Part shown: piece after piece, positions 3,477 to 52,605 of the stretch
Layout: every line of letters starts with the position of its first letter
How positions within the stretch are numbered: the stretch's first letter is position 1
Source of the DNA: an uncultured Chloroflexia bacterium
Lineage (GTDB): Bacteria > Chloroflexota > Limnocylindria > Limnocylindrales > CSP1-4
DNA length: 64,000 bases
Assembly (NCBI GenBank): GCA_963828165.1
Contig: CAWHDR010000001.1
Span: 1,920,001 to 1,984,000, forward strand
Direction: 5' to 3'
The notes under the pieces: generated by a model
The model's input: only the letters and a program-made list of their open reading frames with translations
Databases searched by the model: none
What the model was told of the DNA's origin: nothing
Made by a program: the position numbers and the translations under genes

Positions 3477-4958
3477 TTGACCACGACGGCCGGAGCGGCG
3501 ACGCCGACTTCCATCATCTTCGGCACGGATGGCTGGCGGGCACGCGTCGCCGACGAGTTCACCTTCGACAACGTGCGCCGCTGTGCCGACGGCGTCGCGC
3601 AGTACGTCACCGACGGGGGCGCGTCGGCGAAGGGCGTGGTCGTGGCATTCGACCGGCGCTTCGCGTCGGAGCACTTCGCGGAGGCTGCGGCAGAGATCCT
3701 GCTGGCCCGGGATATCCCGGTCTTCCTCGCGGTCCACGCCGTGCCGACCCAGATGAGCTCGTACGAGGTCGTCCAGCGAGGGGCGGCGGCGGGGATCGTG
3801 ATCACGGCCAGTCACAACCCGTGGGTGGACAACGGGTTCAAGATCAAGGCACCCACCGGCGCAGCCGCCGGTCCGGAGATCCTGGCGGCCGTCGAGGCCC
3901 GGCTCGCCGTCAATGGCCACGAGCGGCTCGACCGCCGGTCATTGGCGGACGCCGAGGCCGCCGGGCTCGTCGAGCGCTTCGACCCGTTCGATGGGTACGA
4001 GGCGTTCGTTCGGAGGACGGTGGACCTGGATGCGCTCCGGGCGGCCGATCTCAACGTCCTCGTCGACCCGTTGTGGGGGGCCGGGTCGGGCTGGCTGAGC
4101 CGCCTGCTCGCGGGTGGGCGCATCCGGATCGACGAGATCCACCAGGAGCGCAATCCCTACTTCGGTGGCGTCAACCCCGAGCCCATCCGTCCGAACATCG
4201 ATGAGGCGCTCGGCCTTCTCGAGCGTGGCACGTACGACCTGGGACTCCTGCTCGACGGCGACGCGGACCGTGCTGGAGCCGCGGACGAGCGGGGGACGTT
4301 CATCCACCAGCTCGAGGTCACGGGGCTCCTGATGTACTACCTCGCCGAGCATCGCGGCTGGCGCGACCCGGTCGTGGTCAGCGTGAACAACACATCCATG
4401 GCCGCCCGCCTGGGCGAGCGGTTCGGGATCGAGACCCACGAGACTCCGGTCGGATTCAAGTTCATCGGTCCCAGGATGATCGAGACCGGCGCGATGATGG
4501 GGGCCGAGGAGTCGGGAGGCTTCGGTTTCGGGATGCACCTGCCCGAGCGGGACGGGATCTACGCGGACCTGCTGCTCCTCGACCTGTTCATGCGCGAGCG
4601 AGCCGCCGGCCGCTGGCCGGTGTCGGTCGCCATGCAGCACTTTCACGAGGTCGCGGGCCCGTCGTTCTATCGCCGCATCGACGTCCACGTGGATCGCGCC
4701 GAGTACGCCAACGTCAAGCGACGGCTCCTCGTGGACCTCGCCGCTGACTCGCCGACGGAGCTAGCTGGCGAAGCAGTCGACCACACGGTCGCGCTGGACA
4801 CCGGTGATGGGTACAAGTTCTTCCTGGCAGACGGCTCATGGCTGCTGATCCGCGCGTCGGGTACGGAGCCGCTGGTCCGCGTGTACACGGAGGCGACCGC
4901 TCCGGAGCTGCGGGAGGCGTTGCTCGTCGCGGGCGAGGCCCTGGTCCGCGGCTCGTGA
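3477..4958 (+). CDS. Phosphomannomutase/phosphoglucomutase
   Basis: FGTDGWR, ITASHNP phosphoserine loop, DGDADR metal loop, GAEESGG, RASGTEPLVRVYTE. Confidence 0.92.
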   Translation: MTTTAGAATPTSIIFGTDGWRARVADEFTFDNVRRCADGVAQYVTDGGASAKGVVVAFDRRFASEHFAEAAAEILLARDIPVFLAVHAVPTQMSSYEVVQRGAAAGIVITASHNPWVDNGFKIKAPTGAAAGPEILAAVEARLAVNGHERLDRRSLADAEAAGLVERFDPFDGYEAFVRRTVDLDALRAADLNVLVDPLWGAGSGWLSRLLAGGRIRIDEIHQERNPYFGGVNPEPIRPNIDEALGLLERGTYDLGLLLDGDADRAGAADERGTFIHQLEVTGLLMYYLAEHRGWRDPVVVSVNNTSMAARLGERFGIETHETPVGFKFIGPRMIETGAMMGAEESGGFGFGMHLPERDGIYADLLLLDLFMRERAAGRWPVSVAMQHFHEVAGPSFYRRIDVHVDRAEYANVKRRLLVDLAADSPTELAGEAVDHTVALDTGDGYKFFLADGSWLLIRASGTEPLVRVYTEATAPELREALLVAGEALVRGS

Positions 4959-42021: not shown

Positions 42022-42212
42022 GGCGAGACCTCGCGTGCGAGCCGACGCCCGGCGGGCGTCGAAACATTCGAATTCGAAGTATCCGCGAGGGGCCGCCGAC
42101 CGCCCACGACTGGCGACCTTCGTCGGCGAAAGCTTCGATTTCGAAGGATCCCGTGCGCGGCAGCCAACGGCTCGCTCAGGAGCCCGAGGGCGTGACGGTA
42201 GAATGGCGCGCG

Positions 42213-43475
42213 ATGCCCAACCCGCTCGTCGTCCAGAAATTCGGTGGCTCATCGGTCGCCGGTGCGGATCGCATCAAGCGCGTCGCCCGGCGGATCGCAC
42301 GTGAGCGCGCGGCCGGCCACGACCTCGTTGTCGTCGTGTCCGCCATGGGCGACACGACGGATGAGCTCCTCGGGCTCGCCGCAGGCATCACCGATGAACC
42401 CGACCCGCGAGAGCTCGACGTCCTGCTCGCGACCGGCGAGCATCAGAGCGCGACGCTGGTCTCGATGGCCCTGCACGCGATCGGCGTTCCGGCGATCAGC
42501 CTGAGCGGCCCGCAGGCCGGCATCACGACCGACGGCACATACGGACGCGCCCGGATCGCGGGGATCGAGCCACGTCGTGTGCGCGCGGAGATCGAGGGCG
42601 GGAAAGTCGTGATCGTGGCGGGGTTCCAGGGTCAGAGCGCCACGTCCGCGATCGATCAGGAGATCACGACGCTGGGCCGCGGTGGCAGCGACACGACCGC
42701 CGTGGCGCTCGCGGCCGCCCTCCAGGCGGACCGCTGCCAGATCTTCACCGACGTGCGCGGCATCTTCACCGCCGATCCGCGCCTCGTGCCCATGGCCCGG
42801 CAGTTGCCGATCGTCGGCTACGAGGAGATGCTCGAGCTCGCCCACCAGGGCGCCCAGGTCATGCAGGTCCGGGCCGTCGAGCTCGGTTGGGTCAACGACG
42901 TCGTCATCGAAGTCCTGAGCTCCTTCGAGGACGCCCCGGGCACGCTCATCAAGGAGGACCCGCTCGTGGAGCAGCGCAACAAGGTCCGCGGGCTCGCCCA
43001 CGACCGCAACGTGGCCAAGGTCACGGTCGTCGCCGTGCCGGACCGGCCCGGCATCGCCCGCGCGATCTTCGATCCGCTGGCCGCCGCCGGCGTCAACATC
43101 GACCTCATCGTCCAGAACGTCGGCCACGGTGGTGAGACCGACCTCTCGTTCACCGTGCCCCAGCTCGAGCTCGGGAAGGCCAAGAAGACGCTCGATCCGG
43201 TCGTTCGCGAACTCGGGGCACGGGAGCTGACCACGGACGCCTCGGTCGCAAAGGTGTCGATCGTGGGGGCCGGGCTCCACAACGCACCGGGCTACGCCGC
43301 TCGGATGTTCGGCACGCTCGCCGATGCGGGCGTGAACATCGAGATGATCTCGACGTCGGAGGTCCGGATCACCTGCATGATCGCCGAGGATGAGCTCGAG
43401 ACCGCGCTGCGTGCGCTGCACGAGGCGTTCGAGCTGGAGCGACCCGAGCCGATCGAGGTCGCGGCGGCCGGCTGA
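42213..43475 (+). CDS. lysC: Aspartate kinase
   Basis: VVQKFGGSSV, SAMGDTTD, TTLGRGGSDTTA, two ACT domains, ISTSEVRI. Confidence 0.95.
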   Translation: MPNPLVVQKFGGSSVAGADRIKRVARRIARERAAGHDLVVVVSAMGDTTDELLGLAAGITDEPDPRELDVLLATGEHQSATLVSMALHAIGVPAISLSGPQAGITTDGTYGRARIAGIEPRRVRAEIEGGKVVIVAGFQGQSATSAIDQEITTLGRGGSDTTAVALAAALQADRCQIFTDVRGIFTADPRLVPMARQLPIVGYEEMLELAHQGAQVMQVRAVELGWVNDVVIEVLSSFEDAPGTLIKEDPLVEQRNKVRGLAHDRNVAKVTVVAVPDRPGIARAIFDPLAAAGVNIDLIVQNVGHGGETDLSFTVPQLELGKAKKTLDPVVRELGARELTTDASVAKVSIVGAGLHNAPGYAARMFGTLADAGVNIEMISTSEVRITCMIAEDELETALRALHEAFELERPEPIEVAAAG

Positions 43476-43486
43476 GCCGCAGCACC

Positions 43487-44305
43487 GTGACCGGGTTCCT
43501 CACCCGCCAGGAACGGTTCACCGTCGTCGGCTCGACGAACGACGTCGTGCGCGACTGGCTGGCCGCTGGGACCCCGGAGGTCTGCCTGGCGGTCGCCGAC
43601 GCGCAGACCGCGGGTCGCGGGCGAGAGGGCCGGACCTGGGTCGCCCCCGCGGGTGGCGCGTTGTTGCTCTCGCTCGGGTTCCGGCCGGCGTGGCTCGCAC
43701 CGGACCGGGTCTGGCGTCTGGCCGCGACGGCGTCACTGGCCATGGCCGAGGCGGCCGAGCACATCGCCGGGCTGCCGGACCGGACGATCCGACTGAAATG
43801 GCCAAACGACCTGGCGGTGGAAGCCACCGACGGCGTGCGCAAGCTGGCCGGAGTGCTCGGTGAGACCGATGGCCTGGGCGGGCCGGACCCGCGCGCGATC
43901 ATCGGCCTCGGGCTGAACACGGATTGGGCGGCAGACGACTTCCCACCCGAGCTTGCCGGGTCGATGACCTCGCTGCGCGAGGTGTCGTCGGGCCGTCCGA
44001 TCGACAACGACGCGCTGCTCGACGGGTTCCTCCGGCGACTGGAAGCGGACTTTTCGGCGCTGCGCCGCGGCCAGTTCGATATCGCCGCCTGGGCCGACCG
44101 GCAGATGACGAGCGGACGCCACGTCGAGCTCGTCGCCCCGGACGGTGCCGTGACCACAGTCCAGGCCCTTGGCGTGGACCCGGACACGGGTGCGCTCGCG
44201 GTCGAGGACGACAGCGTGCCGTCTGGCGCGCGCCACGTCGTCGTCGGGGAGATCCGTCACGTGCGCGTGGCCGCGACGGGCGCTGCGACCGGGGCCGGGG
44301 TGTAA
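43487..44305 (+). CDS. birA: Biotin-[acetyl-CoA-carboxylase] ligase without HTH domain (group I)
   Basis: STND, QTAGRGREGRTW, LKWPND, RKLAGVL, IGLGLN; no N-terminal winged helix. Confidence 0.9.
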   Translation: MTGFLTRQERFTVVGSTNDVVRDWLAAGTPEVCLAVADAQTAGRGREGRTWVAPAGGALLLSLGFRPAWLAPDRVWRLAATASLAMAEAAEHIAGLPDRTIRLKWPNDLAVEATDGVRKLAGVLGETDGLGGPDPRAIIGLGLNTDWAADDFPPELAGSMTSLREVSSGRPIDNDALLDGFLRRLEADFSALRRGQFDIAAWADRQMTSGRHVELVAPDGAVTTVQALGVDPDTGALAVEDDSVPSGARHVVVGEIRHVRVAATGAATGAGV

Positions 44306-44309
44306 CGGG

Positions 44310-44948
44310 ATGGCACGACCGGCATTGAGGAGACTGGCACGACCGGAGGAGACCGTTCGTCCACGCCTCGCCCGCCTGGATCGCGATCGATCGCTCGTGG
44401 ATGCGGCGCGGAACGATCCGGCACGGTTCGACGCCCTGTATCGGAAGTACCTGGCCCAGGTGTACAACTTCGCGGTCTACGAGCTCGGCGACCACCACGA
44501 CGCCGAGGACGCCACCGAGCGCACCTTCCTGTCCGCCCTCGCCGGCCTGACCGGTTTCGAGGAGCGAGCGCGGCCAGAGGACGGGCCCGAGGCGTCCACG
44601 TTCCGGATCTGGCTGTTCCAGATCGCGCGCAACGTCGTGTCGGAGCGCCGGCGCCGCCGCCGTCGCCGACCGGAGGCCCCCCTCGAGATCGTCGCCGAGG
44701 CTCCCGACCCCGCCAACCTCGAGGAGACCGTCGTGCGGCGCGAGTTGGCGACCGCCGCATGGGGCGCCGTGGACCGTCTCACCGGGGATCGCCGTCGGGC
44801 GGTCGTCCTGCGGTTCGTCCACGAGATGACGACCGCGGAGATCGCGTCGATCCTGGGTCGGTCCGAGGGTGCGGTCCGGGTCCTCATCCACCGCGGCCTG
44901 CGGCGCGTGGCGGGCGATCTCCTGGCGCCGGATCGGGATCCTCGGTGA
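44310..44948 (+). CDS. ECF RNA polymerase sigma factor
   Basis: FDALYRKY, DAEDATERTF, FRIWLFQIARN (region 2); EIASILGRSEGAVRVLIHRGL (region 4). Confidence 0.9.
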   Translation: MARPALRRLARPEETVRPRLARLDRDRSLVDAARNDPARFDALYRKYLAQVYNFAVYELGDHHDAEDATERTFLSALAGLTGFEERARPEDGPEASTFRIWLFQIARNVVSERRRRRRRRPEAPLEIVAEAPDPANLEETVVRRELATAAWGAVDRLTGDRRRAVVLRFVHEMTTAEIASILGRSEGAVRVLIHRGLRRVAGDLLAPDRDPR

Positions 44949-45412
44949 ACGGAGCAGGTACCACGCGCGATGGGGAGAACGAGGCGTTCGTGATCGACCG
45001 CTACCTCGAGTCGCTGCTGAGCCGAACACCGGCGGACGCGACCGACCTTGCGCCGGAGCTCCGTGAGACCGCTGCGGCGCTCGCGGGCGGGCTTCCCCGT
45101 TACCACCCGTCCTTCCGGTTCGAGGAAGCGCTCGCCCAGCGGCTCGCGCACGCCGCCGCGGCCATGGGACCCGCCGCCGAGCCGGTCGCCGAAACGGCTT
45201 CCGGCATCATCCCGTTCCCGCGACCCCTGGTCATGGATGCGGCGCTGGACGGGCGTCCCGGTACCTTCCGGCCAGCCGTCATCGGTGGCGTCCTGACGTC
45301 GGCGGCGATCTCCCTGGCCGGGGCGGCCTACGTCGCCTGGCGACGCAGCCGGCCGGCGGCCGATCCGATGGCCCGCGCGATCCGCGCCGCAGCCCGGCGA
45401 AGGACCGCCTGA
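44945..45412 (+). CDS. Putative membrane anti-sigma-like protein
   Basis: Coupled to the ECF gene (GTGA); N-terminal helical region with PSFRFEEALAQRL; single C-terminal TM. Confidence 0.55.
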   Translation: MNGAGTTRDGENEAFVIDRYLESLLSRTPADATDLAPELRETAAALAGGLPRYHPSFRFEEALAQRLAHAAAAMGPAAEPVAETASGIIPFPRPLVMDAALDGRPGTFRPAVIGGVLTSAAISLAGAAYVAWRRSRPAADPMARAIRAAARRRTA

Positions 45413-47403
45413 TGCCGCTCAAATTGCCGTCGTTCCGTGCCCGCCGGGACGTGTACCCGCCTGACCTGTGGACCAAGTGTCCGGTGTGCTCGACCATGCT
45501 CTTCAACAAGCAGCTCGAGAAGAACCTTCGAGTGTGCTCGACGTGCGGGCACCATTTCCGCCTGGCCGCCGGCGCGCGTCTCGAGCAGCTCCTCGACCCC
45601 GGCTCGTGGTTGGAGCGCGATGCCGGGCTGCAATCAGTCGATGCCCTGGGCTTCGTGGATCAGAAGCCGTACCCCGACCGACTGAGCGCCGCCCAGCTCG
45701 CGACGGGCATGCGAGACGCCGCCGTCTGGGGAACGGGCGCGATCGGGGGCACGCGGCTGGCCGCCTGCGTGATGGACTTCGGGTTCATGGGCGGCTCGAT
45801 GGGCGCGGTCGTCGGCGAGAAGGTGACCCGTGCGGCCGAACACGCCCTCGTGGCCCGCGTGCCGTTGCTGATCGTCAGCGCCTCGGGCGGGGCGCGGATG
45901 CAGGAGGGGACGCTGGCGCTGATGCAGCTGGCCAAGACCCTCGCGGCCCTCGAACGGCTACGCGCGGCGGGTGTGCCATTCGTCTCGATCCTGTCGGACC
46001 CGACGACGGGCGGGGTGTTCGCCTCCTTCGCGGCGGTCGGTGACGTGAACATCGCCGAGCCGAATGCCCTCATCGGGTTCGCCGGCGCCCGGGTCACGGC
46101 CGGCACGATCGCCGCCGAGCTGCCCGAAGGGTTCCAGCGCGCCGAGTTCCTGTACAGCCACGGGTTCATCGACCGGGTGGTGGCACGTCCCGAGATGCGC
46201 GGCGAGCTCACGCACCTGCTACGCCTGTTGCCCTCGCGCGGCATGACCGCCCCGCCGGTGGACCCCGCCGACGACGTCGCCGCGTTCCGGCCCCTGTCCT
46301 TCCTCTCGTCGATCGCGGACCGGGTGGGCGAGCTGGCGAACGGCGACGGTCCCCCGGCGCCCGCGCCTGCACGCGGCGAAGGCGGGAGCCCGGTCCCGAA
46401 CACGCTCCCGATGCCGGCGCCGGACAGCAACCCCACGGACGGGGCCCCGCCGAGCACGGCCACGACCGAGGAGGTCTGGGCGCGCGTCCAGCTGGCGCGC
46501 AACCTGCGCCGTCCGCGCACCCTCGAGTTCATCGCCGCGATGGCCGACGACTTCGTCGAACTCCACGGCGATCGGCTGTTCGGCGACGACGAGGCCATGG
46601 TCGCGGGCCTGGCCAGGATCGGGGGACGACGAGTCGTCGTGATCGGGCAGCAGAAGGGCGACGACACCGACGAGAACATCCGGCGCAACTTCGGCATGCC
46701 GCACCCCGAGGGCTACCGCAAGGCGATGCGGGTCATGGAGCTTGCCGAACGCGTCGGCCTGCCGGTCGTCACCTTCGTCGACGTCCCGGGCGCCCATCCG
46801 GGGCCCGAGTCGGAAGAGCGCGGCATCGCCGAGGCGATCGCCCGCTCGATCGGGCTGATGACCAGGCTGCGGACGCCGATCGTCGCGGTCATCACCGGCG
46901 AGGGTGGGTCGGGTGGAGCGCTGGCCATCGCCGTCGGGGACGTGGTCATCGCGCTCGAGAATGCCGTCTACTCGGTGATCAGCCCCGAAGGCTGCGCGTC
47001 GATCCTGTGGCGGACCTCGGATGAGGCCGCGACAGCCGCCGCCGCGATGCGCATGTCCGCGGCGGATCAGCACGCCCTCGGCGTGGTCGACATCGTCGTC
47101 GCCGAGCCAGGTGAGGGCGCGCACGCCGAGCCTGAGGAGACGGCCAAGCGCCTGCGCAGGATCATCGTCGACCGTCTCGACGCGCTGGCGGAGCTGCCCA
47201 CCGAAGCCCTGCTCGAATCGCGCTACCGGCGCTATCGGGCGTTGGGCGCCTACACTGAGGCCGCCCAACCCGAAGTCCCCGAACGTGTCGATCGTCGCCT
47301 GGCGGATCGATTGCGAGACCTGCTCGACCCGGCCCGTCGGGGCATGGCCCCGGTCACTGACAGCTGGTCCCGCGATGACCCGCCGGCGCGCGAGGAGGTG
47401 TAG
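45412..47403 (+). CDS. accDA: Fused acetyl-CoA carboxylase carboxyltransferase beta-alpha (AccD-AccA)
   Basis: LWTKCPVC..CSTC zinc finger, GGSMG, SGGARMQEG (AccD); Pro-rich linker; RNFGMPHPEGYRKA, GEGGSGGA, YSVISPEGCASILW (AccA). Confidence 0.93.
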   Translation: MPLKLPSFRARRDVYPPDLWTKCPVCSTMLFNKQLEKNLRVCSTCGHHFRLAAGARLEQLLDPGSWLERDAGLQSVDALGFVDQKPYPDRLSAAQLATGMRDAAVWGTGAIGGTRLAACVMDFGFMGGSMGAVVGEKVTRAAEHALVARVPLLIVSASGGARMQEGTLALMQLAKTLAALERLRAAGVPFVSILSDPTTGGVFASFAAVGDVNIAEPNALIGFAGARVTAGTIAAELPEGFQRAEFLYSHGFIDRVVARPEMRGELTHLLRLLPSRGMTAPPVDPADDVAAFRPLSFLSSIADRVGELANGDGPPAPAPARGEGGSPVPNTLPMPAPDSNPTDGAPPSTATTEEVWARVQLARNLRRPRTLEFIAAMADDFVELHGDRLFGDDEAMVAGLARIGGRRVVVIGQQKGDDTDENIRRNFGMPHPEGYRKAMRVMELAERVGLPVVTFVDVPGAHPGPESEERGIAEAIARSIGLMTRLRTPIVAVITGEGGSGGALAIAVGDVVIALENAVYSVISPEGCASILWRTSDEAATAAAAMRMSAADQHALGVVDIVVAEPGEGAHAEPEETAKRLRRIIVDRLDALAELPTEALLESRYRRYRALGAYTEAAQPEVPERVDRRLADRLRDLLDPARRGMAPVTDSWSRDDPPAREEV

Positions 47404-47406
47404 CGA

Positions 47407-48033
47407 GTGCCCAGATCGCACCCAGGGGATGCGCGCGAACCCGTTGACGTGACCGTGGATCGCGCGGCGGACCATGCTGCGATCGACCGGCTGACGGACG
47501 AGCTGCTGCCCGCGCTCATCGCCAAGCTCGGCGCGACCGGCCTCGGCGAGCTCGAGGTCCGCGAGGGCGCCTGGCGGGTGCGCCTCCGCCGACCGATGGG
47601 CAATGGCACGGTCACCCCGGGTCCGACGCGGGAGCGCAAGGGCGGGGATCGCGCTGGAGGCGAGCGTTCGGAGGGCGCGCCCGACCGCGCCGGCGAACGT
47701 GCGCCCCGGACGTTGCATCGTCCGCTGGAGGCGAAGACCGCGCGGACCGAATCGCGCGCGGTGGCGACCTCGCCGGCTGTCGGGATCTATCGCTCGCGGG
47801 CCGACCTGTCCGCCGGGACGCGCGTCCGGGCCGGTGATCGACTCGGCGCGGTGGACATGCTCGGGGTCGCACAGGAGGTCGTGGCGCCCGTCGACGGGAT
47901 CCTCGGCACGAGCCTCGTGGAGTCGGGCGATGCCGTCGAGTACGGCCAGGAGATCCTGGTGATCCAGCTCACCACCGGCCATGCGCCCACGAACGGCACT
48001 GGGGCCGACGGCCGCGGACGAGGCACCGCCTGA
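47407..48033 (+). CDS. BCCP-like protein lacking the biotinylated lysine (BADC-like)
   Basis: BCCP N-terminal motif GLGELEVREG, SPAVGIY, VRAGDRLGAVDMLGVAQEVVAPVDG, GDAVEYGQ; Gly at the Lys position. Confidence 0.8.
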   Translation: MPRSHPGDAREPVDVTVDRAADHAAIDRLTDELLPALIAKLGATGLGELEVREGAWRVRLRRPMGNGTVTPGPTRERKGGDRAGGERSEGAPDRAGERAPRTLHRPLEAKTARTESRAVATSPAVGIYRSRADLSAGTRVRAGDRLGAVDMLGVAQEVVAPVDGILGTSLVESGDAVEYGQEILVIQLTTGHAPTNGTGADGRGRGTA

Positions 48034-49403
48034 TGTTCAGAAAGGTCCTCATCGCGAACCGGGGCGAGATCGCGTTGCGGATCCTGCGTGCCTGCCGCAC
48101 GCTCGGCGTGGAAGCGGTCGTCGCCTACAGCGAAGGCGACCGTGATTCGCTGCCCGTGGGTCTCGCCGACGAGGCGATCTGCATCGGGCCGGCGGACGCG
48201 AAGCGCTCGTACCTGTCCGCTCCGGCCGTCATCTCCGCCGCGCTGGTCACCGGTTGCGACGCGATCCACCCGGGCTACGGGTTCCTGTCCGAGGACGAGG
48301 GGTTCGCCGAGGTGGTGGCAGCCCACGATCTGACGTTCATCGGTCCGCCGGCGGGCGTCCTGGAACGGTTCGCGAGCAAGGCTGGCACGCGCCAGCTGCT
48401 CGGCGGCTTCGGCCTGCCGACGATCCCGGGCTCCGAGGGGATGCTGCGCGACGACATGCACGCACTCGACGAAGCCAGTCGGATCGGCTATCCGGTCCTC
48501 GTGAAGCCATCCGCCGGCGGCGGGGGCAAAGGCATGCGCATGGTGCGCACGCCACGCGAGCTCGAGTCCGTGCTGCGGGTCTGCCGCAGCGAGGCCAAGG
48601 CCGCGTTCGGTGACGACTCCCTGTACCTGGAGAGGTGGCTCGACGAGAACCGGCACGTCGAGGTCCAGGTCGCGGTCGATCGGTACGGACACGGCGTCCA
48701 CCTGGGCGAGCGCGACTGCTCCGTGCAGCGGCGTCACCAGAAGATCCTCGAAGAGGCGCCCACGCCGGCGCTCTCCGATGCCGCCCGCGCCGACCTCGCC
48801 GAGCGTGCGCTCAAGGCCGTGGTGGCAGCTGGCTACGAGAACGTCGGGACGCTCGAGTTCCTCGTCGATCGCGACGGCAACTTCTATTTCATCGAGATCA
48901 ACTGCCGGATCCAGGTGGAGCATCCGGTGACCGAGGTCCTCACCGGCGTCGACCTCGTGGTCACCCAGATGCGGATCGCAGCGGGCGAGCCGCTCGGCAT
49001 CACGCAGGCGGACATCGCGTTCCGCGGGCACGCCATCGAGTTCCGCATCAACGCCGAGGATCCAGATCACGAGTTCCGGCCGAGCGCCGGGATCGTCGAG
49101 CGCTATCACGCTCCGGGCGGCCCGGGCATCCGTGTGGACTCCCATCTGTTCACCGGCTACGAGGTCCCGCCGTACTACGACTCGCTGCTTGGCAAGCTGA
49201 TCGTCTGGGGTCCCGACCGCCCTGCGGCGATCGCCCGCTCTCGGGTGGCCCTCGAGGAGCTCGTCATCGACGGGCTCGTGACGAACGTCGCCATCCATCA
49301 GGCGCTGCTGTCCTCGGAGGCCTTCCTCGAGGGCAAGATGACGACGAACCTGCTCGACCGGGTGGGGAGTGCCGCGTTCCTGGCTGCGGCCGCCCGGGTG
49401 TGA
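48033..49403 (+). CDS. accC: Biotin carboxylase
   Basis: KVLIANRGEIA, IHPGYGFLSE, GGGGKGMR, ERDCSVQRRHQK, RIQVEHPVTE, YYDSLLGK. Confidence 0.96.
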   Translation: MFRKVLIANRGEIALRILRACRTLGVEAVVAYSEGDRDSLPVGLADEAICIGPADAKRSYLSAPAVISAALVTGCDAIHPGYGFLSEDEGFAEVVAAHDLTFIGPPAGVLERFASKAGTRQLLGGFGLPTIPGSEGMLRDDMHALDEASRIGYPVLVKPSAGGGGKGMRMVRTPRELESVLRVCRSEAKAAFGDDSLYLERWLDENRHVEVQVAVDRYGHGVHLGERDCSVQRRHQKILEEAPTPALSDAARADLAERALKAVVAAGYENVGTLEFLVDRDGNFYFIEINCRIQVEHPVTEVLTGVDLVVTQMRIAAGEPLGITQADIAFRGHAIEFRINAEDPDHEFRPSAGIVERYHAPGGPGIRVDSHLFTGYEVPPYYDSLLGKLIVWGPDRPAAIARSRVALEELVIDGLVTNVAIHQALLSSEAFLEGKMTTNLLDRVGSAAFLAAAARV

Positions 49404-49515: not shown

Positions 49516-50007
49516 GTGACCCACGCCGCACCCACCGCAACGACGACCGCCGCCCCGACCACGGTCCATACCGTCCGTGAGATCGAGGCCCTGATCCCGC
49601 ATCGCTGGCCGTTCCTGCTCATCGACCGCATCGTCGAGTACGACCAGGAGGCGAAGCGGATCGTGGCGATCAAGGGAGTGACCGCGGGGGAGTGGTTCTT
49701 CGCCGGGCATTTCCCGGGGCTGCCGGTCATGCCCGGCGTCATGCAGGTCGAGGCACTTGCCCAGACGATGGCCGTCTACGTGGCCAAGCAACCCGGATTC
49801 GGCGATCGGATCGGGCTGTTCGCCGGGATCGACGACGCGCGCTTCAAGCGCATCGTCAGCCCGGGCGACGTCCTCCGGCTGGAGATCACGATGGACAAGC
49901 TCGGCTCGCGGTTCGGACGCGGCCGGGGGATCGCCAGCGTCGACGGCGAGGTCGCCTGCGAGGCGACCATCAGCTTCGTGATCCCAGGAGAGGGCGTGCT
50001 CCGGTGA
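49516..50007 (+). CDS. fabZ: 3-hydroxyacyl-ACP dehydratase
   Basis: IPHRWPFLLIDRI, GHFPGLPVMPGV, EALAQ, RFKRIVSPGD. Confidence 0.93.
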   Translation: MTHAAPTATTTAAPTTVHTVREIEALIPHRWPFLLIDRIVEYDQEAKRIVAIKGVTAGEWFFAGHFPGLPVMPGVMQVEALAQTMAVYVAKQPGFGDRIGLFAGIDDARFKRIVSPGDVLRLEITMDKLGSRFGRGRGIASVDGEVACEATISFVIPGEGVLR

Positions 50008-50750
50008 GTCGCCTCGCAGCCCTCTCCGACGTGCACGGCAACGCCACGGCGCTCGAGGCCGTGCTCGCGGACGTCGCGCGCGAGAAGCCGGACGCCGTGC
50101 TCGTCGCCGGCGATCTCGTGCTCAACGGACCGGAACCGGCGCTCGTCGTCGACGTCCTGCGCAGCCTGGCCGACGAAGGGGCGCTCGTCGTCGCCGGCAA
50201 CACCGACATCGCCGTCGCCGACTTCGACTATGCAGCAGCGTTCCCGTGGATGACCGACGGTGTGCCGGACGCCATCATCGACGCCGCGGAATGGGCGCAC
50301 GACGCGCTCGGCGCCGAGCGGATCGACTGGTTGCGTCGACTTCCGTCCGAGCGACGCTGGCGCACCGATGACGACACCCTCGTCCTGGTCTGCCACGCAT
50401 CACCCGGCTCGCAGACCGCGGGCTTCGACCAGGGGCTCGAGGCGTCCGTCACGATCGAGCGGGTCGCCCGGACCGACGCTCGCGTCATCGTCTGCGGCCA
50501 CACCCACCTGCCGGAGGTGCGCGATCTCGGCTGGAAGCTGATCGTGAACGACGGATCGGCCGGCTACGTGTTCGACGGCGAACCGACCGCGTCGTGGGCG
50601 CTCATCGACGTCGAGGGCGGTGACGTGCGCGCCGAGATCCGCCGGACCGAGTTCGACGTCCTGTCGGTCGCCAACGCCATCTCGGCGCGCGGGCTCGCTG
50701 GCGACGTATACCGTGCGGCCACCGTCCGAACCGGGAAGCTCGTCCGATGA
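50004..50750 (+). CDS. Calcineurin-like metallophosphoesterase (YfcE-like)
   Basis: SDVHGN, GDLV, GNTD, CHAS, CGHTH, NDGS; overlaps both fabZ and fabF by 4 nt. Confidence 0.85.
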   Translation: MSRLAALSDVHGNATALEAVLADVAREKPDAVLVAGDLVLNGPEPALVVDVLRSLADEGALVVAGNTDIAVADFDYAAAFPWMTDGVPDAIIDAAEWAHDALGAERIDWLRRLPSERRWRTDDDTLVLVCHASPGSQTAGFDQGLEASVTIERVARTDARVIVCGHTHLPEVRDLGWKLIVNDGSAGYVFDGEPTASWALIDVEGGDVRAEIRRTEFDVLSVANAISARGLAGDVYRAATVRTGKLVR

Positions 50751-51997
50751 CGAGGCGGGTCGTGGTCACCGGGATGGGCATGCTCTCGGCGCTCGGCAAC
50801 GACGTGCCCTCCACGTGGGCGGGCCTGCTCGCCGGGCGACCCGGCATCCGGACGATCGAGGCCTTCGACCCGTCGCGGCTGACCGCACAGATCGCCGGCG
50901 AGGTGCGGGACTTCGACGCGAGCCACGTCCTGGACCGCAAGGACCAGCGCCGGACGGACCGTTACATCCAGTTCGGCCTCGTGGCCGCGCGCGAGGCGAT
51001 GGACCAGGCGGGGCTGCCGGCACGCCTCGAGGACAAGCTAGCGGAGCGGACCGGCGTGATCCTGGGGACCGGGCTCGGCGGCGTCGGGACCCTGAACGAC
51101 GGATTCTCGACGAACGCCCTGCGCGGCCCCGACCGGATCAGCCCATTCCTGATCCCGATGGGGATCCCGAACGTGGGTGCGGGGCAGATCGCCATCACCT
51201 ACGGCATGACCGGACCCAACTTCGCCACGGTGTCCGCATGCGCCACGGGTGGCCACGCCGTCGGTGAGTCGTACGAGACCATCCGTCGCGACGATGCCGA
51301 CATCATGCTCGCTGGCGGCTCGGAGGCGTGCGTCTTCGAGGTCCTCATCGGCGGGTTCGCCGCGATGCGCGCGCTCTCCACGCGGAACGACGACCCCGCC
51401 GCGGCGTCCCGTCCATTCGATACGGGCCGTGATGGCTTCGTGGTCGGCGAAGGCGCCGGTGTCCTCGTGCTGGAGGAGCTCGAGCACGCGCAGGGCCGCG
51501 GCGCGACCCCACTCGCCGAGCTCGTCGGGTACGGAGCGACCGCGGACGCGTCCCACATCACGCTGCCGGCTCCCGGTGGCATGGGAGCGGTTCGCGCAGC
51601 CAGGCGCGCCCTCGAGAAGGCCGGGCTCCAGCCCGAGGACGTCCAGCACGTCAACGCGCATGCCACCTCCACACCCGAGGGCGACAAGGCCGAGCTGCAG
51701 GCCATCAAGACGATCTTCGGTGACCATGCCGCGTCCCTGGCGATCACGGCGAACAAGTCGATGATCGGTCACACGCTCGGTGCCGCGGGTGCCGTGGAGG
51801 CGATCGCCACCGTGCTTGCCCTCCGCGACGGGTGCGTCCCTCCGACGATCAACCTGACCGACCCCGACCCGGAGGCCGAAGGGCTGGACATCGTCACCGG
51901 CGAGGCGAAGCGCCTTGACATGGCGGTCGGTCTGTCCAACTCGTTCGGGTTCGGCGGACAGAACACGGCCCTCGTCTTCCGCCGGTGGGACGCATGA
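50747..51997 (+). CDS. fabF: Beta-ketoacyl-ACP synthase II
   Basis: RVVVTGMG, SACATG, GEGAG, NAHATST, KSMIGHTLGAAG, SNSFGFGG. Confidence 0.95.
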   Translation: MTRRVVVTGMGMLSALGNDVPSTWAGLLAGRPGIRTIEAFDPSRLTAQIAGEVRDFDASHVLDRKDQRRTDRYIQFGLVAAREAMDQAGLPARLEDKLAERTGVILGTGLGGVGTLNDGFSTNALRGPDRISPFLIPMGIPNVGAGQIAITYGMTGPNFATVSACATGGHAVGESYETIRRDDADIMLAGGSEACVFEVLIGGFAAMRALSTRNDDPAAASRPFDTGRDGFVVGEGAGVLVLEELEHAQGRGATPLAELVGYGATADASHITLPAPGGMGAVRAARRALEKAGLQPEDVQHVNAHATSTPEGDKAELQAIKTIFGDHAASLAITANKSMIGHTLGAAGAVEAIATVLALRDGCVPPTINLTDPDPEAEGLDIVTGEAKRLDMAVGLSNSFGFGGQNTALVFRRWDA

Positions 51998-52605
51998 CCG
52001 ACGACGCGACGCAGTCGATGGAGACGCCCGAGGTTCCCCGGGCCCCGGCGTCGCCGGCCCCCGCTGCGTCAGCGGCCACGGCGGGCGACGCCGGAGACCA
52101 AACAGGCGCCGCGCCGCCGCGTGCCGACGACGACCTCGAGCTGCTGGGACTGATCGATCGGCTGGCGGCCCTCCTGGATCGCTCCGACCTGACCGAGCTG
52201 GAGGTCGAGTCGGGTGGGACCGGACTCGTCCTTCGCAAGCCCTCGGCCATCGCGCCCATCGCAAGCACCGCGCTGACGTCGGCACCGACGGCGGCCGGAC
52301 CGGAGACCGCGCCGACTGCGACGGGGGAAGCGACGACCGCCGGAGGCGACGTCGCCCCCGCGGCGAAGCCGTCGATCAAGGCGCCGCTGACCGGGATCTT
52401 CTATGCATCGCCGGCGCCGGGCTCGGCGCCGTACGTCACCGCCGGCGGGGAGGTCGCCGTCGGCCAGATCATCGGCCTGATCGAGGCGATGAAGCTCTTC
52501 AACGAGATCAAGTCGGACCTGGCAGGCCGCGTCGTCCGGGTGGTGCCGGAGAGCGGCACCCTGGTCAAGGCGAAGCAGCCGCTCATCGAGGTGGAACCGC
52601 TGTGA
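51994..52605 (+). CDS. accB: Biotin carboxyl carrier protein
   Basis: DLTELEVE, APLTGIFYASPAPG thumb, IEAMKLFNEI. Confidence 0.93.
   Translation: MTDDATQSMETPEVPRAPASPAPAASAATAGDAGDQTGAAPPRADDDLELLGLIDRLAALLDRSDLTELEVESGGTGLVLRKPSAIAPIASTALTSAPTAAGPETAPTATGEATTAGGDVAPAAKPSIKAPLTGIFYASPAPGSAPYVTAGGEVAVGQIIGLIEAMKLFNEIKSDLAGRVVRVVPESGTLVKAKQPLIEVEPL

Follow-up and report, generated by a model that had tools for sequence, protein, structure and literature searches.

X is our working name for an open reading frame (ORF) at 47407-48033 on the forward strand (+) of a 64,000-nucleotide stretch of DNA from a soil-dwelling member of the Limnocylindria, a class of Chloroflexota (the window; contig CAWHDR010000001.1 of assembly GCA_963828165.1, positions 1,920,001 to 1,984,000). 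It encodes a lysine-less paralogue of AccB (biotin carboxyl carrier protein, BCCP) inside an acetyl-CoA carboxylase (ACC) operon. Bacterial carboxylase holoenzymes are said to be 'glued' by epsilon subunits, small non-catalytic proteins that are not known to be BCCP-like. Actinobacterial acyl-CoA carboxylase epsilon subunits are cited in the available sections of PMC11926652; compared by description only, they resemble X in the non-catalytic 'glue' role that we propose for it. The same sections describe the plant proteins BADC1-3, which are 25-30% identical to BCCP, are without AMKL at the motif and do not become biotinylated. BADC is argued there to be the 'glue' of assembly between biotin carboxylase (BC, AccC) and BCCP, as opposed to an earlier inhibitor model, and the abstract calls it 'unique to the plant htACCase', the heteromeric enzyme (PMC11926652). 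In Chlamydomonas, excerpts of PMC13585458 describe a single BADC-like protein that is stoichiometric with the carboxyltransferase (CT) subunits, and they give a competition model.

X resembles BADC in being BCCP-like, in having neither a biotinylation motif nor its lysine, with 25% identity to its own AccB, and in co-existing with a true BCCP; BADC has been proposed to bind BC. The Chlamydomonas protein is stoichiometric with CT subunits, and for X a similar stoichiometry is suggested by its coupling within the operon. However, X is bacterial, lies inside an acc operon and keeps a bacterial-type N-terminal helix-hairpin module, whereas BADC is known, from the sections of these papers available, in plants and algae; X comes from a Chloroflexota operon and is not a nuclear-encoded plastid protein. 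By every feature that a sequence can show, X thus appears analogous to BADC, which is characterized here by published descriptions only. Because X is found in Chloroflexota and BADC in plants and algae, the two would seem to be of independent origin, and membership of X in the BADC clade is unlikely.

Within the Chloroflexota, the ACC of Chloroflexus is described in excerpts of PMC11077971 as having a fused BC-BCCP with EAMKM, and the term 'BADC' does not occur in those excerpts. We found no description of a bacterial lysine-less BCCP in the open-access literature searched. A lysine-less BCCP paralogue built into a bacterial ACC operon, together with a phylum-wide pattern of such proteins, is what is new here; neither was found described in that literature.

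X is a BCCP paralogue without acceptor lysine and thumb

X has a full-length BCCP architecture from which the acceptor lysine and the thumb are missing. Its parts, with the predicted local distance difference test (pLDDT) of an AlphaFold2 model whose mean is 77.5, are as follows.

47407..48033 (+): X, lysine-less BCCP paralogue, 208 aa, GTG start (ORF list)
47452..47589 (+): X residues 16-61, helix and beta-hairpin module including GELEV; helix 16-44, strands 48-53 and 56-61; pLDDT 84-89
47590..47751 (+): X residues 62-115, disordered Arg/Gly/Glu-rich linker; pLDDT 50-62; length and sequence vary
47752..47970 (+): X residues 116-188, biotinyl-type barrel-sandwich domain, no thumb, no Lys; pLDDT 96-98
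47860..47865 (+): Leu152-Gly153 (CTC GGG), in the place of the Met-Lys of the biotinylation motif; from alignment and codons
47935..47949 (+): Val177-Glu-Tyr-Gly-Gln181 patch, predicted AccC contact; V, E, Y and G in 72/72 copies; residues 176-181 in the predicted interface

The canonical AccB of the window is 25% identical to X (BLASTP, E 3e-4), and the biotinyl hairpins of the two proteins align without a gap (GAVDMLGVAQEV in X versus GLIEAMKLFNEI in AccB), which places Leu152-Gly153 opposite Met-Lys. The X hairpin reads V-D-M-L-G-V instead of E-(A/V)-M-K-(M/L), with Gly153 at its tip. The BCCP family model TIGR00531 matches X residues 37-187 (E 2.4e-7) with a score of 31.3 bits, where the cut-off is 115.2, and Biotin_lipoyl, the sole Pfam domain given for X, scores 20.8 bits against a cut-off of 22.1; the corresponding scores of the window AccB are 107.9 and 46.8 bits. 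When a profile of the X family is compared with solved structures, the best relative is full-length E. coli BCCP (4hr7_B, E 1.1e-17), where profile positions 36-187 align to chain positions 28-176 and the E. coli protein has six additional residues at the thumb. The N-terminal module of X aligns to E. coli BCCP from residue 28 on, and its residues E48, E50 and R59 are invariant in the family. A Foldseek search ranks the E. coli biotinyl domain first (1bdo; TMt 0.82, root-mean-square deviation 1.8 A over 76 columns) and 4hr7_G fifth (TMt 0.85).

A reading of the letters of this stretch alone (the sequence-only reading) had described X as an ORF in the slot between accDA and accC whose hairpin aligns gap-free to AccB, whose biotin-accepting lysine is Gly, and which keeps an N-terminal ELEV motif and has no thumb. 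Every one of these points was borne out. Residue 153 is encoded by GGG at 47863-47865; ELEV is found in both X and AccB; and X is gapped exactly at the thumb, both against AccB and against E. coli BCCP. The AccB ORF runs from 51985 to 52605, and the start at 51994 given earlier is its first ATG.

In summary, X has in common with AccB/BCCP (TIGR00531; 1BDO, 4HR7) the three-part architecture and the fold, and it occupies the classical slot directly upstream of accC. AccB/BCCP proteins differ from it by their Met-Lys and thumb, X lies far under their family cut-off, and a separate AccB serves as the carrier. X is not an AccB in the functional sense. Since the acceptor lysine is replaced by Gly and the barrel is free of lysine, X is predicted not to be biotinylated.

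X is fixed in the acc operon and under purifying selection

The genes that define the position of X are listed below. The source genome has 3.3 Mb in 6 contigs, and the window (70% G+C) lies on contig 1. Its nearest named relatives are Chloroflexota known from metagenome assemblies under the names Candidatus Limnocylindria or Limnocylindrales.

45412..47403 (+): accD-accA fusion (accDA), carboxyltransferase beta-alpha, 663 aa; Pfam Zn_ribbon_ACC at residues 20-45, Carboxyl_trans, and ACCA at 355-612 (E 2e-113)
47392..47398 (+): Shine-Dalgarno-like GAGGAGG within the accDA 3' end, 8 nt ahead of the X GTG; read from the sequence
48033..49403 (+): accC, biotin carboxylase, 456 aa; domain match; start overlaps the X stop
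51985..52605 (+): canonical accB, with EAMK, thumb and N-terminal module; overlaps the fabF end, 4 kb downstream of X
43487..44305 (+): birA-type biotin protein ligase (PF03099, E 7e-15), upstream within the conserved gene string

Read from the sequence, the accDA stop TAG occupies 47401-47403 and the GTG of X follows at 47407. At the other end, a TGATG overlap joins the X stop (TGA, 48031-48033) to the accC start (ATG, 48033-48035). X, AccDA and AccC come from one translationally coupled message. The sequence-only reading had put X between an AccD-AccA fusion and a biotin carboxylase, with TGATG coupling to the latter (48031-48035) and a neighbouring BirA; the domain matches agree with it in each respect, the ligase being the PF03099 protein at 43487-44305.

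We now turn to how widely this arrangement is kept. Among relatives' genomes, X has a match at E<=1e-5 in 37/41, including 22/24 of the window's genus and 14/16 of a sister family with genomes of 1.0-1.4 Mb, where the copies read (D/E)VLG. A sample of 401 Chloroflexota genomes was searched as well; every genome in it from the four in-class families has a match (f1 23/23, f2 4/4, f3 16/16, f4 2/2), and the hairpin Leu-Gly is present in all f2, f3 and f4 examples read. The tally for the whole phylum sample, 240/401, mixes X-like proteins with true AccB and includes the unpublished G184; we do not use it as support. A scan of one genome per species gave 80 loci, of which L020-L075 and L077 are metagenome-assembled genomes (MAGs) of Chloroflexota/Limnocylindria type with X; the seed pattern G[EDQ][AG]VEYG[QE] brought in the rest, which are true AccB genes from other phyla.

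For synteny we considered 71 related loci (L011-L019, L020-L075, L077 and L104-L108). The next recognized gene after X is accC in 71/71, and the gene before it is accDA in 67/71, the other four loci starting at a contig end, so the accDA-X-accC synteny proposed as a check is present in every locus not cut short. The conserved order is lysC-birA-sigma-accDA-X-accC. A canonical accB follows fabF, and so co-exists with X, in all of the loci that continue past fabF (48/48), and the hairpin reads GL(I/V)EAMKLFNE in 45/45 fabF-linked AccBs. X is fixed in the acc operon across the whole class, in four families. One variant was seen in f3, where a malonyl-CoA:ACP transacylase (fabD-like) gene, PF00698, lies between X and accC (L072:6339-7433; also L073, L077 and L106-L108).

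The replacement of lysine by Gly is equally constant. At E<=0.001 a word-indexed search found 4065 proteins; in the best 120 of them, which are 65-100% identical to X, Leu-Gly occurs in 119, and the remaining one has a gap. Profile matches among 1.84 billion cluster representatives numbered 2178 at E<=0.001, falling to 362 at <=1e-10 and to 127 at <=1e-30. Leu-Gly is present in 146 of the 150 representatives listed from these 2178, the other four being fragments short of the hairpin (P0141, P0150, P0180 and P0237), and in 72/72 readable operon copies, window included. The whole barrel is free of lysine in 122/146 representatives, with lysine at <=4% in every column; a search for an alternative acceptor lysine in the barrel found none among these 146. 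Across the 127 clusters at E<1e-30 the frame and the invariant residues are intact. Close orthologues of X therefore do not retain Met-Lys (119/120, 146/150 and 72/72 with Leu-Gly).

Selection on X was quantified by the ratio of nonsynonymous to synonymous substitution rates (dN/dS), using pairwise Nei-Gojobori comparisons of the window with six relatives, whose whole-gene dS of 0.4-1.1 is partly saturated. The ratio was 0.22-0.36 for whole X and 0.25-0.31 for AccB, as compared to 0.11-0.21 for AccDA and 0.04-0.13 for AccC. Within X it was 0.02-0.20 for the N-terminal module, 0.08-0.31 for the barrel, 0.18-0.55 for the linker and 0.41-1.35 for the C-terminal tail. X is under purifying selection and about as constrained as AccB, and the relaxed selection by which the earlier reading could have failed did not appear.

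The X barrel is predicted to dock on biotin carboxylase

Published work on the E. coli enzyme indicates where a BCCP may sit on BC. In the 4HR7 structure, according to the portion available of 10.64898/2025.12.30.697075, E. coli BCCP contacts BC at the helix of residues 64-73. Excerpts of a preprint on E. coli filaments (PMC11160672) describe that position on BC as non-catalytic, add that BCCP also contacts the N-terminus of AccD, and treat the first 30 residues of BCCP as forming an alpha/beta/beta module, for which oligomerization is predicted.

We submitted AccC and X to a complex predictor with our own alignments of 39 loci each, so that the calibration counts hold only roughly. The interface score ipSAE was 0.80, 0.79 and 0.80 in the three runs, as compared to 0.34, 0.00 and 0.00 in the controls; a mark of this height is met by 58/80 solved complexes and by 2/110 mismatched pairs. 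At least 63% of contacts were common to the runs, with a partner pLDDT of about 61. The confident contacts comprise AccC residues 34, 49-53, 59, 64-65, 67-69, 71-73 and 98, and X residues 124-127, 151-152, 154 and 176-181. Family-invariant residues of X in this predicted interface are V125, G126, L152, V177, E178, Y179 and G180. The model suggests that the X barrel docks on the AccC helix 64-73.

The VEYGQ patch in this interface differs between the two paralogues of the class. Where X, the lysine-less copies linked to efp in other Chloroflexota (next section) and other AccBs read VEYGQ, the Limnocylindria AccB reads LVKAKQ, the changed patch positions being K in 43/45, A in 39/45 and K in 37/45. 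The patch is also gone in the fabF-linked AccB of four other Chloroflexota genomes (G200 TIAAGQ, G126 LVHTGE, G108 LVQAGD and G326 VVQKGD).

Lysine-less BCCP-like genes elsewhere in the phylum, and the origin of X

Outside the class, profile matches lie in a pepP-efp-[BCCP-like]-xseA-xseB string of other Chloroflexota, as identified by Pfam and gene contexts. Of 24 such efp/xseA-linked genes read, 8 have EAMK and 16 have lost the lysine, with LG in 6, LN in 5, LR in 2, and MM, VN and LA in 1 each. Loci with this gene string include the following.

L101, L102, L109-L111, L113-L117, L120-L123, L126 and L127 (other Chloroflexota genomes): efp/xseA-linked loci

The VEYGQ patch is retained in 16/16 of the lysine-less copies. 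Three more loci (L119, L129 and L130) hold lysine-less copies with no reference gene within 1.5 kb. Because one LG copy belongs to an Armatimonadota MAG contig (L078:5953-8095; hairpin ILALGI, separated from the accC that comes next by a 125-aa ORF lacking any Pfam match), lysine-less BCCP-like genes reach beyond the Chloroflexota. The genome of the window itself has efp directly next to xseA, and the slot between them is empty (L136; G000 contig 5, 122000-134000). In the literature searched we found nothing on efp-linked lysine-less BCCP-like genes.

In G200, G126, G108 and G326, all of which have an efp-linked copy without the lysine, a canonical AccB comes right after fabF (4/4) and reads GLIE(A/T)MK(V/I)FNE, the type seen in Limnocylindria. 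In G308, G316, G324 and G286 a lysine-bearing efp-linked copy is the only full-length BCCP above the TIGR00531 cut-off, and G210 has such a copy plus a second BCCP, also with lysine. These 4 + 5 genomes (9 in total) were hand-picked, and they provide a lead, not a test, on the relation between lysine loss and a fabF-linked AccB. The efp-linked genes resemble X in being full-length and BCCP-like with the lysine replaced, and in co-existing with a fabF-linked AccB in 4/4 genomes. They are unlike X in having no accC or accDA nearby and in the residue at the lysine position, which varies among them and is strictly Gly in X; some of them keep a thumb-length loop, unlike X. X is one form of a phylum-level system of two BCCP paralogues.

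We built a quick maximum-likelihood tree (158 columns; bacterial sequences only), taking 81 of the 170 BCCP-like rows whose hairpin was readable; X, the Limnocylindria AccB and the other lysine-bearing groups were sampled by hand, and all other rows were kept. The Limnocylindria AccBs form a clade among canonical AccBs with a support of 99 in the Shimodaira-Hasegawa-like approximate likelihood ratio test (SH-aLRT). A split with 95% SH-aLRT support places L078 and 11 efp-linked lysine-less rows on the same side as the 28 rows of X; L078 and L101 have very long branches, which may attract. Eight lysine-less proteins of LN/LR/LA type fall among lysine-bearing ones, so the lysine was probably lost more than once. 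X stands apart from the Limnocylindria AccB in this tree. In the approximately unbiased (AU) test, a grouping of X with the Limnocylindria AccB was not rejected (p 0.17). X may therefore be a relocated efp-linked paralogue or a class-specific duplicate; after the tree and the AU test, both origins stand.

The proposed role of X and its alternatives

On balance, we read X as a non-catalytic, BADC-like subunit of the Limnocylindria acetyl-CoA carboxylase, derived from BCCP and unable to carry biotin, and we think this somewhat better than an even proposition. What X would do in ACC, whether through binding, assembly or an effect on activity, is suggested here by conserved sequence features and the complex model. 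The barrel of X would sit on the non-catalytic BCCP site of biotin carboxylase through its invariant SPAVG, LG-hairpin and VEYGQ segments, while its N-terminal helix-hairpin module would co-oligomerize with that of AccB. X would then be a fixed anchor, or 'glue', that keeps BC together with AccB and, probably, with the carboxyltransferase at its AccD zinc-ribbon end, and the biotinylated AccB would be the mobile carrier that swings between active sites. The parts that such an anchor would use are present, namely the alpha/beta/beta module in X and the zinc ribbon in AccDA. By analogy, this role may be the assembly-factor version of the one proposed for BADC in plastids.

The sequence-only reading had gone further in one direction, proposing a bacterial BADC analogue that acts as scaffold or regulator, possibly as an undescribed control system. 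An analogue in architecture and context is supported by a conserved non-biotinylatable paralogue in the acc operon and by the AccC model, and an effect on ACC is proposed. More probable than a control system is a stoichiometric subunit with a structural role, since X lies between accDA and accC under translational coupling and is presumably not separately regulated.

Several observations weigh against the proposed subunit role or lessen what its evidence can carry. The predicted AccC complex, although its ipSAE of 0.80 stands well above the best control at 0.34, may, as the predictor itself warns, reflect its memory of 4HR7, in which case it would show the likeness of X to a BCCP bound to BC and not the binding of X. 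The correspondence between AccC and E. coli BC numbering was assumed and not aligned. The proteobacterial AccB set was picked by the VEYG pattern, whereas the efp-linked set was found by profile; the former is therefore silent on the generality of the patch. Since the lysine-less copies of other Chloroflexota adjoin efp and xseA and lie away from accC, linkage to the ACC operon is no general trait of such BCCPs, and the role may lie outside ACC. Expression adds weak support. One soil RNA library held a share of 0.06 of the words, and a 512-nt contig from it, with 35 differences, spans the accDA/X junction at 47068-47567; the contig comes from a relative and is maybe DNA contamination. The bin at 47678-47811 is without cover in that library, which proves nothing, and RNA-library contigs cannot give transcript ends or levels.

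The strongest competitor inverts the sign of the effect. According to the inhibitory BADC model, X would be a competitive negative regulator that occupies the BCCP sites on BC and lowers malonyl-CoA flux, perhaps depending on a pH, charge or signal sensed by its Arg/Glu-rich linker. The predicted AccC binding and the missing lysine fit this explanation equally, and the accessible parts of PMC13585458 and PMC11926652 have BADC competing with BCCP for BC. However, translational coupling between accDA and accC means that X is made whenever, and in the amount that, the enzyme is made, which would be strange for an inhibitor. The site in the model also corresponds to one described as non-catalytic, X is kept even in the streamlined sister-family genomes of 1.0-1.4 Mb, and an AccB without the docking patch may not compete with X there. 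We consider inhibition unlikely. X could instead act outside the carboxylase, by autoregulation of the operon or in a role common to the efp-linked relatives and unrelated to malonyl-CoA; the N-terminal part of E. coli AccB autoregulates accBC, dN/dS within X is lowest in the N-terminal module, and 16/24 efp/xseA-linked BCCP-like genes are lysine-less and do not adjoin accC. This is less probable still, as X is held between accDA and accC across four Limnocylindria families, its invariant barrel residues coincide with the predicted AccC interface, and its sequence has no sign of DNA or RNA binding, Pfam giving only Biotin_lipoyl.

Two further explanations question whether X is a working protein of this kind at all. 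The barrel-sandwich fold is common to biotinyl and lipoyl carriers, so X might bear another prosthetic group or a modification elsewhere and be an alternative carrier protein; with no lysine in the barrel of the window's X, a Gly at the hairpin tip, and 122/146 representatives lysine-free with no column above 4%, we regard this as very improbable. That X is a decaying or functionless duplicate of accB might be read from its scores under the Pfam (20.8 vs 22.1) and TIGR00531 (31.3 vs 115.2 bits) cut-offs and from the loss of motif, thumb and lysine together. It is hardly credible, given a dN/dS of 0.22-0.36 equal to that of AccB, 127 clusters in which the frame is unbroken and the invariant residues are kept, a position conserved in 71 loci and a barrel predicted at pLDDT 96-98; the pseudogene reading was rejected on dN/dS.

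Returning to the structural subunit, a more specific version of it is possible, though doubtful. The two jobs of the one E. coli BCCP may be divided in Chloroflexota between an obligate pair of X and AccB. X would keep the SPAVG/VEYGQ docking patch and the N-terminal module and hold the complex at the non-catalytic BC/AccD site; AccB would keep the lysine and the thumb, with the docking patch lost, and ferry biotin. If so, one would expect the second paralogue to lose its lysine repeatedly and independently across the phylum after a fabF-linked AccB is in place. On this view X would amount to a natural separation-of-function mutant, and the 'parked' BCCP site of 4HR7 and the E. coli filament would be an assembly site.

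Other features of the locus

The remaining genes of the string around X are listed here.

42153-43475 (+): lysC
within 44169-44948 (+): ECF-type (extracytoplasmic function) sigma factor
44759-45412 (+): 217-aa ORF without a Pfam match, between the sigma factor gene and accDA
49516-50007 (+): fabZ; identity read from the ORF translation
within 49692-50750 (+): calcineurin-like metallophosphoesterase, between fabZ and fabF
50747-51997 (+): fabF; identity read from the ORF translation
downstream of accB (+): fabH and fabG; identities read from the ORF translations

The sigma factor gene keeps its place between birA and accDA in most related loci (lysC-birA-sigma-accDA), and a metallophosphoesterase gene at the fabZ/fabF place is recognizable in about half of them. 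In f4 (L104 and L105) the gap between X and accC is 2-3.5 kb. Contigs of long-read type at L049, L063, L067 and L070 hold many frameshifted genes and were dropped from the hairpin count where unreadable, and accC at L077:7424-8788 has an in-frame stop; faulty assembly, and not pseudogene formation, is the likeliest cause of these frameshifts and of the stop. Recoding of in-frame TGA in f3, raised by '1 TGA' flags, was rejected, as the matches merely extend beyond the stop codon that ends the gene (the L107 ORF ends at 4789).

Beyond the barrel, the C-terminal tail of X (residues 191-208, 47977-48030) carries an S/P-T-N-G-T-G motif, of which T195, N196, G197 and G199 are invariant in 33 close homologues; more distant family members do not have the motif. 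PF25917 is a precomputed label on many homologues; our own Pfam scan of X (E up to 1) did not return it. Several close homologues, among the best 120 listed, are labelled 'biotin carboxyl carrier protein' by their sources, and the label is misleading because these proteins are without the lysine.

Significance

Proteins of the X type that are named 'biotin carboxyl carrier protein' cannot be such, which bears on annotation. Non-catalytic BCCP look-alikes have so far been treated as a plant peculiarity, in the available sections of PMC11926652, and whether BADC-type proteins are 'glue' or inhibitors is disputed between the corresponding sections of PMC11926652 and PMC13585458. The bacterial counterpart has its four subunit genes and birA in one string and consists of small soluble proteins, a simple system for reconstitution and structure determination. 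The Limnocylindria system could consequently settle how a biotin-less BCCP affects the assembly of BC, BCCP and CT. The phylum-wide pattern, a fabF-linked AccB accompanied by a second paralogue that has probably lost its lysine several times, is one of duplication followed by partition of function in an essential enzyme.

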